Source: Escherichia coli
GTDB lineage: Bacteria > Pseudomonadota > Gammaproteobacteria > Enterobacterales > Enterobacteriaceae
DNA length: 64,000 nucleotides
Assembly: GCF_030013205.1 (NCBI RefSeq)
Contig: NZ_CP122648.1
Strand: one strand, 5' to 3'
In this document: positions 1,671 to 3,745 of the stretch, one piece after another
How the letters are laid out: each line of letters starts with the position of its first letter
How positions within the stretch are numbered: the stretch's first letter is position 1
Translations under genes and position numbers: made by a program
Notes under the pieces: generated by a model
What the model saw: the letters and a program-made list of their open reading frames with translations, nothing else
The model's database searches: none
What the model was told of the DNA's origin: nothing

Positions 1671-3181
1671 TATGCCGCCCTTACAATATAATTGAACGCT
1701 ACGTTGCGGGGTCTACTCATAGCTATATATCCGATACGGTCAGTGTTTGTTACTCCGTTCGCAGCGATCGCCCTGACTGTGTAAAGATTGGACGGCAAGT
1801 CTGTTGGTTTTTTATCATATCCCCACACAGAATAGTCCACCAGGTTGTTAATTGTTAAAGGGGTGATTGTTGACTCGCCATCATCCCCAACGACTAGCGA
1901 CCCACGCTGCTCACTTAACAGAGTTCGCCCCTCATCCACACCTCGTCCGTCATCCCAGCCACGAATAAACTCGCCGCGTAAATCAGGTAATTTTAGAGAA
2001 GGGTAAACTTTTGCCAGTTGTGGGTATTCTTCGGCATAGAATGCTGCACCATTACATTTCAACCATCCTTCAGGTGGTGTTTCTATTGGCCACGGAACAG
2101 GCACTCCCACCGGGAGTGCGGACCCAGTTCCCAAACCGAGGTTATTTAAAAACGCAGCTACATCAGCAATATCTGAACCGTTCTTACTGATTTCCATTTT
2201 ACCTGACATGGTTTTAGTAATCGTCGTGGCAAAGTTCGGATCATTCCCCAGCGCCGCCGCCAATTCGTTCAGTGTATCCAGTGCCGCAGGTGCAGAACCC
2301 ACTATTGCTGCAATCGCCGATTTCACAAAAGCCGTGGTGGCAATCTGTGTATTGTTGACCGACTGTGCCGCAGTAGGTGCGGTTGGCGTTCCGGTGAGTG
2401 CCGGACTCGACAGCGGCGCTTTCAGTGCCAGCGCATTGTTAATGGTGGTACTGAATTTCGGATCATTGTTAATGGCTGCGGCTATTTCTTTCAGCGTGTC
2501 CAGCGTGGCTGGCGCACCATTAATAAGAGCCGTCAGAGCCGCCTGAACAAACGCGGTGGTCGCAATCTGCGTGGTGTTATTCCCTGCGGCTGGCGTTGGC
2601 GCTTTGGGTGTCCCGGTAAGCGTCGGACTTTCTTTGGGTGCATACTGTGAATGCGGGTCCGGTGCGGCAAGATGTTTTGCCATCTGATCATCCACGTACA
2701 CCTTCAACTCCAGTGCTTTGTCATCCACATACTTGCGGGTTGCCAGCACGACGGCAGGGTCGATTTTCAGTGTGATATTGTCCGTGCTGCTGGTAATCAG
2801 CACCATGCGCACGGTCTGGGTGCGCCCGCTGCCTTCAGCCAGTTGTGGCTTATAGCTTTCCGGGCAGTTGCCCACGGCAATCAATGCCCCGGACTCATCA
2901 AACAAGCCCACTTCACGTATCCACCAACCGCCCTCGTTTTCAGGGATCACCTGTTCGGCAATAATCTGGCTGCTGTTCTGCGGGTCGATATAGAGCATAT
3001 TCAGCGCAGCCCGGCGTTTCTCATTTACCAGTGCAGTCTGCTTTGAGTCTGGCGTTGGCAATACTCCGCCGCCATCGCCGACCGCCATATGGGTAATTTT
3101 TAGCGGCACACCGAGCGCGGCGGCGCTGGCAAGTTTCGCCGCGCCAATATCCGTCAGCAGGGTATAAAATTTTGTGCTCAT
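1670..3181 (-). CDS. Phage tail fibre protein (P2 gpH-like)
   Basis: 503 aa ORF with the conserved P2-type tail fibre N-terminus (MSTKFYTLLTDIGAAKLA...) and internal NTTQIATTAFV repeat units. Confidence 0.85.
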   Translation of the reverse strand: MSTKFYTLLTDIGAAKLASAAALGVPLKITHMAVGDGGGVLPTPDSKQTALVNEKRRAALNMLYIDPQNSSQIIAEQVIPENEGGWWIREVGLFDESGALIAVGNCPESYKPQLAEGSGRTQTVRMVLITSSTDNITLKIDPAVVLATRKYVDDKALELKVYVDDQMAKHLAAPDPHSQYAPKESPTLTGTPKAPTPAAGNNTTQIATTAFVQAALTALINGAPATLDTLKEIAAAINNDPKFSTTINNALALKAPLSSPALTGTPTAPTAAQSVNNTQIATTAFVKSAIAAIVGSAPAALDTLNELAAALGNDPNFATTITKTMSGKMEISKNGSDIADVAAFLNNLGLGTGSALPVGVPVPWPIETPPEGWLKCNGAAFYAEEYPQLAKVYPSLKLPDLRGEFIRGWDDGRGVDEGRTLLSEQRGSLVVGDDGESTITPLTINNLVDYSVWGYDKKPTDLPSNLYTVRAIAANGVTNTDRIGYIAMSRPRNVAFNYIVRAA

Positions 3182-3745
3182 GGATTCACTCTCATTGTGT
3201 CAATAACATGGACCGCCCCGCCTTCATGCGCGGTGCCGCCAGAAATAATTGTTTCGTTGATATACGGATAGATCGTGATTTCTTCGCCAAGATAGCTGGC
3301 GGCCCCCACCCAATGCGGACCGCTGGTCTGCAGATTGATGGACATGCCGATCATGTGACGGCTACATGGTTTGGCATCGCTTATCAGCCGCTCAAGTTCC
3401 AGATAGGTATCTTCAGTGATGCCCTGGTCCTGCACGCCGATATCCAGGCGAAACGTGCCCGGTGTTTCTCCGGTCTGCCACCACCCGCCGCACGGCACTG
3501 GTGGTTCCTTTATGCTGATGAATATAAAAAGCATCCTTCACTACCTGGCGTTTGACGCTTTCTGTCCAGCCCTCGTCCCAGCGATCCACAGAGAACGCCC
3601 AGGCGAGATAAGGCAGGAAGCTGACCGGACAGGTAGCCGGATTCCACAAGTCACGCAGCGGCACCTGCAGATCAGAAATCCCGCTACAGGTTTGCGCCAG
3701 TCGGCGCTCCAGTGAAGTTGAACCCGGTGGCAGCAGACTATTCAT
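3178..3745 (-). pseudogene. Phage tail protein I (P2 gpI-like), apparently split by a frameshift
   Basis: Two overlapping minus-strand ORFs (3413-3745 and 3178-3534) in different frames together span about 189 codons; the upstream ORF starts with the typical gpI N-terminus (LLPPGSTSLERRLA...). Confidence 0.5.

Follow-up and report, generated by a model that had tools for sequence, protein, structure and literature searches.

The DNA that we analyzed, here called the window, is a stretch of 64,000 nucleotides from Escherichia coli. A prophage remnant sits in it between the host genes rcdA and ybjL, and the late baseplate and tail-fibre genes of this P2-like element are located on the minus strand from 1074 to 5567. 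One of these genes, gene I, is split. It keeps its place in the late operon V-W-J-I-H-G, where stop and start codons overlap from gene to gene; MS10860 and FJ_Ec_21 have intact prophages with the same order. The features on which the following analysis relies are collected in the table.

Features of the rcdA/ybjL prophage remnant, in coordinates of the window
Feature	Position	Strand	Evidence or remark
Acyltransferase cargo gene (Acyl_transf_3), cut by the window start	1..1001	+	downstream of G; Pfam, RefSeq
Gene G, tail fibre assembly protein (Caudo_TAP), intact	1074..1670	-	ORFs, Pfam
Gene H, tail fibre (Phage_tail_fib and Collar), intact	1670..3181	-	ORFs, Pfam
Gene I pseudogene (P2 gpI / Tail_P2_I baseplate wedge protein)	3178..3745	-	ORFs, alignment, Pfam, RefSeq
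Native C-terminal coding part of gene I, W101 to P201 and stop	3178..3483	-	alignment, translations, Pfam
N-terminal frame of gene I, 110 aa	3413..3745	-	ATG at 3745; 89 native codons and 21 out of frame; stop 3413-3415
Deletion junction, sole remaining GTGGTGG	3478..3484	-	alignment and sequence
Gene J (Baseplate_J), intact	3738..4646	-	stop overlaps the start of gene I; ORFs, Pfam, RefSeq coordinates
Gene W (GPW_gp25), intact	4633..4992	-	ORFs, Pfam
Gene V, baseplate spike (Phage_base_V and Apex motif), intact	4989..5567	-	ORFs, Pfam
FRG-domain cargo gene (PF08867), PADLOC candidate defence family PDC-S15	5653..6588	+	antisense between S and V; E 8.5e-32
Tail gene R, C-terminal fragment fused to the truncated cII-like gene	7045..7224	-	RefSeq annotation, BLAST
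Truncated cII-family regulator (Phage_CP76), without C-terminus	7220..7615	-	Pfam, RefSeq
Junction of a further deletion (3,343 bp, by comparison with sister strain EC556), with GTAAC microhomology	7221..7225	.	sequence comparison
CI repressor (7995-8564), YdcA-family gene (8580-8771) and integrase (8960-10012)	7995..10012	+	rcdA-adjoining prophage end

Two open reading frames on the minus strand cover gene I. In the ORF list, one of 110 aa (3413..3745) and one of 118 aa (3178..3534) lie in different frames and overlap by 122 nt, from 3413 to 3534. Both match the Tail_P2_I profile (PF09684) with scores above its gathering cut-off of 20.6 bits: the N-terminal frame covers profile positions 1-86 (122.2 bits, E 1.9e-35) and the C-terminal frame positions 92-138 (38.4 bits, E 1.4e-09), while the intact allele of the gene scores 184.1 bits. 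This agrees with an earlier sequence-only reading of the locus, which had recognized two gpI-like halves with exactly this overlap. The native C-terminal part has no start codon of its own, and the ATG at 3534, to which the ORF finder prolongs it upstream, is incidental. The pseudogene measures 568 bp as compared to 606 bp in the intact gene. No single continuous frame runs through the whole of gpI; two frames are left after a deletion of 38 bp. In identical genomes RefSeq annotates the interval 3178-3745 as 'phage tail protein I, frameshifted'. The split gene I is a pseudogene, a non-functional member of the P2 gpI / Tail_P2_I family.

The neighbouring genes V, W, J, H and G have full open frames as judged by Pfam, and none of them is flagged as a pseudogene in RefSeq. 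They had been described as intact in the sequence-only reading. This holds for the block itself; beyond the block, however, the prophage is a remnant. The truncated cII-family regulator is joined to what is left of tail gene R, where the BLAST match to an intact R gene begins only 251 nt into R. Neither the ORFs of the window nor its annotation contain replication, portal, capsid, terminase or lysis genes between the cII and R fragments. All of these genes are there, in the normal order and together with an intact gene I, in the full-length relative FJ_Ec_21. Essential modules have been lost or truncated, and the integrase and CI genes are kept. Judged by its gene content, the element is a defective (cryptic) P2-like prophage, which would no longer be able to make particles.

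The tail block is flanked by two cargo genes. Related prophages among the matches listed for the 12-kb region contain SIR2, GmrSD, KAP NTPase or DUF4041 genes, which suggests that the FRG-domain gene may lie in a cargo or defence hotspot. The acyltransferase gene occupies the spot where the sheath gene comes next in intact relatives. It had no match in PADLOC and may be a surface-modifying cargo gene of the lysogenic conversion type. A small ORF between the CI repressor and integrase genes (8580-8771, plus strand) encodes 63 aa with a signal-peptide-like N-terminus. It is called 'YdcA family protein' in one genome and hypothetical in others, and it too had no PADLOC match. Elsewhere in the window, at 21591-22296 on the plus strand, the annotation of the near-identical strain ETEC4067 places two genes between rimO and dgcI, one for a RelE/ParE-family toxin and one with an HTH domain. 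This pair is not known from the rimO-dgcI position in K-12.

The lesion in gene I was pinpointed by alignment to intact homologs, as the sequence-only reading had proposed. The alignment of the window with the intact allele of MS10860 (606 bp, 201 codons) and with K_EC180 contains one gap of 38 bp, and all other columns are identical. The lesion is consequently larger than the small homopolymer indel that the reading had implied, and the intact allele of 201 codons is longer than the roughly 176-189 codons that it had expected from a repaired gene. The reading frame is disrupted because 38 is not a multiple of three. A 701-base query divided the best hits in E. coli genomes into two groups; one aligns in one piece to 701 bases and the other in two pieces that span 739 bases. 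The intact allele reads ...GCGGCGG-GTGGTGG-AACCGTTCGGATTCCTGATCCGCATTATTGA-GTGGTGG-CAGACC..., so that two copies of the 7-bp direct repeat GTGGTGG, 38 bp apart, flank the segment which is missing. Gone from the window are one copy of the repeat and the 31 bp between the copies. DNA folding of the deleted segment on both strands, compared with shuffled sequences, gave no significant hairpin (z -0.87 and -1.03).

A junction in which one copy of a repeat is retained is the usual signature of a short-homology deletion. Such a footprint is expected from replication slippage or from RecA-independent illegitimate recombination. A short-homology mechanism is also what the junction in gene I most likely reflects, with the caveat for slippage that repeats of 7 bp within a stretch of 45 bp are not uncommon. 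The same prophage has a second junction with short homology: the window type differs from EC556 by a single deletion of 3,343 bp, the end points of which share 5 bp.

The consequences for the protein are as follows. Translation from the native ATG yields 89 native residues, ending in ...AVRRVV, and then 21 wrong ones before the stop codon; the final 101 native codons (3178-3483, starting with W101) are left in another frame. The intact 201-aa allele aligns over residues 3-174 to the pyocin protein Tri2, PA0619 (PDB 6u5b/6u5k), with E 1e-45, and the residues EPFGFLIRIIE, which the deletion removes, correspond in this alignment to a conserved stretch of Tri2. The complex (PA0618)2-PA0619 is a baseplate wedge, the counterpart of (gp6)2-gp7 in T4 (PMC10457771). 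Because conserved residues are lost and the protein is homologous to the baseplate wedge component Tri2, the truncated gene I product should be non-functional. The lesion also touches the next gene. In the native arrangement the stop codon of gene I overlaps the start of gene H as ATGA (3178-3181). With the premature stop 232 nt ahead of the H start, any translational coupling of I to H would be lost.

Next we consider how the lesion is distributed. Our search set comprised 5,426 complete E. coli genomes and, for phages, 50,697 records. The gene I region is present in about 1,014 of the complete genomes. A 47-mer that spans the deletion junction, and which is unable to seed a match on intact alleles, was found at 100% identity in 17 of the 5,426 genomes; gene I without the junction occurs in about 1,000 others. 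No phage record contained the 47-mer. All 17 carriers are isolates from pigs or wild boar, from separate projects in Korea (K_EC180), Japan (EC556/571/581), France (W13-16 and P15-25) and Belgium (an ETEC series), and O139:H1 ST1 oedema-disease strains are among them. W13-16 and P15-25 are O139:H1 ST1 strains sequenced with PacBio (PMC8798679). In the NCBI, ENA and Logan assemblies the exact 110-aa product with its frameshifted tail occurs on 117 public contigs and the intact 201-aa allele on at least 1,000 contigs.

The genomes that cover at least 80% of window positions 1-12000 are exactly the 17 junction carriers. An intact parent prophage with the same cargo at the same locus was not found in the complete genomes. 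Intact gene I alleles with 100% identity reside in P2-like prophages that differ in a mosaic fashion. Outside the gap, gene I matches intact alleles at 100% identity, so the lesion is recent, and with a recent lesion the intactness of the neighbouring genes needs no selective explanation. It probably reflects recent decay rather than selection.

Among the 17 genomes from pigs and wild boar, the remnant at rcdA/ybjL occurs in three states of decay, which together form a small natural time series of its erosion. In EC556 the part from cII through a truncated replication gene A is present and fused to R; the sheath gene is kept, and the tube and D genes are truncated. W13-16 has a cII-R fusion, keeps the sheath, tube, E and E' genes and has a truncated tape-measure gene. 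In ETEC4067 and K_EC180 the acyltransferase gene abuts a D fragment, and the genes from sheath to tape measure are absent. ETEC4067 and the window show no difference over 21 kb. The part from the sheath gene to D lies beyond the window, and its state in the source strain was read from genomes which are identical over 12-21 kb. The gene I lesion is common to all three states and is therefore older than the lineage-specific deletions. Loss of the capsid and lysis modules is, like the gene I lesion, common to all 17 genomes, and it may have come before or after that lesion.

Taken together, we hold with high confidence that gene I was knocked out by a real, inherited 38-bp deletion between GTGGTGG repeats in the course of ordinary prophage decay. 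An intact allele that is otherwise identical exists, repeats stand at the edges of the lesion, and the lesion is seen in independent assemblies; none of the observations speaks against this reading. The sequence-only reading had left two origins open, and the first of them, a genuine inactivating mutation in a decaying prophage, is upheld by the presence of the same junction in complete genomes and of its product on contigs and by the other large deletions in the prophage. The most likely course of events begins with the loss of 38 bp between the two repeat copies, by replication slippage or RecA-independent illegitimate recombination. This would have happened once, in an ancestor of the pig-associated E. 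coli lineage that includes the O139:H1 ST1 oedema-disease strains. The deletion would then have been inherited vertically, as one of several lesions in the rcdA/ybjL prophage.

It is very unlikely that the deletion was itself selected. In that case loss of gpI, possibly with H and G by polarity, would have helped the host, for instance by removing a harmful or costly product of the tail or tailocin kind ahead of the larger deletions. The presence of the lesion in all three decay states, which places it before the lineage-specific deletions, agrees with such a scenario, as do the premature stop ahead of H and the broken I/H overlap. The capsid and lysis genes, however, are also missing from all 17 genomes and may have been lost first; the junction does not recur in other lineages, and a single event in a clonal lineage is indistinguishable from drift. 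The lesion in gene I is probably neutral.

We give almost no credence to the view that the two-frame arrangement is functional, either through a programmed ribosomal frameshift or through split halves which cooperate. The tail genes E/E' of P2 are expressed by a programmed ribosomal frameshift; P2-like tail operons contain this one example, with both products annotated in W13-16 and FJ_Ec_21, and the two frames of gene I do overlap by 122 nt. However, about 1,000 relatives have a single frame of 201 codons, among them alleles with 100% identity at all other positions, and the two-frame form is limited to one clonal lineage, that of the 17 genomes. Even a perfect frameshift would give a protein without 12-13 conserved residues, and the C-terminal part lacks a native start codon. 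Nor is there a particle that could use gpI: the capsid genes are gone, and in matching genomes the sheath and tube genes are gone as well. A programmed frameshift was rejected on the grounds that the two-frame state is not conserved among relatives.

The other origin considered in the sequence-only reading, an error of sequencing or assembly (such as a collapse or a miscall) in a gene that is really continuous, can be dismissed as having a negligible probability: frameshifts seen in one genome are often errors, and ybiW, 'frameshifted' in ETEC4067 and intact in the window, is a possible example nearby, but here the lesion is a loss of 38 bp and no homopolymer slip, it is the same in 17 complete genomes, which stem from independent projects and platforms (PacBio for W13-16 and P15-25; PMC8798679), and the 117 contigs on which the exact truncated product was called include independent assemblies of public runs. 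These 17 independent complete genomes and 117 contigs exclude a sequencing artefact.

The gene ybiW, which encodes a glycyl radical enzyme, is an intact ORF of 810 codons in the window (36423-38855, plus strand) and is annotated as 'frameshifted' in the near-identical ETEC4067. That call may be an assembly error or a private mutation of ETEC4067. The window and ETEC4067 differ by one 1-nt gap over 44 kb; if this gap is inside ybiW, it could be an indel of one assembly and a possible error, unlike the shared 38-bp deletion in gene I.

A further, tentative idea, which we consider rather doubtful, is that the 38-bp deletion is a clone-specific marker of the pig lineage including O139:H1 ST1, and that the tail block persists only by virtue of the flanking cargo genes (FRG PDC-S15 and acyltransferase) which the host keeps. 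If true, large deletions would be selected against, and the baseplate/tail-fibre block would decay only through small lesions like that of gene I. The three decay states in sister strains might be used as a marker of the E. coli lineage behind oedema disease in pigs. For annotation the frameshift is to be treated as a real inherited allele and listed as a pseudogene instead of being repaired as an error. The locus illustrates cleanly how a prophage decays step by step through short-homology deletions; beyond correct annotation it has little importance.

The lesion in gene I is already known in kind: it is an ordinary pseudogene from a well-known family and a well-known class of mutation, and it is flagged in public annotation. 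Its closest counterpart is P2 gpI (PF09684) as represented by allele WP_001086836.1. The two belong to one family, sit between J and H with stop and start codons that overlap, and are 100% identical in nucleotide sequence apart from the deletion; in contrast to this allele the copy in the window lacks 38 bp and is a pseudogene. The gpI of P2 itself has 176 aa, and the intact allele considered here is longer with 201 aa. Tri2 (PA0619) from the R-type pyocin of Pseudomonas aeruginosa is a homologous wedge protein, but it belongs to another organism and to a tailocin rather than a phage, and by comparison the copy in the window is interrupted midway through the conserved core.

E. coli K-12 also has a cryptic P2-like remnant, the ogr/D-fragment remnant. 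Both elements show stepwise decay by deletion, with the ogr gene and a D fragment left at one end. Unlike the K-12 remnant, the prophage in the window is located at rcdA/ybjL and retains immunity, integrase, S, the baseplate/tail-fibre block and two cargo genes. Finally, the classical lacI deletion spectrum consists of spontaneous deletions between short direct repeats. The deletion in gene I resembles these in having its end points at a short direct repeat of which one copy is retained. It differs from them in that the mechanism is read here from the junction, and no supporting hairpin was found in the deleted segment.
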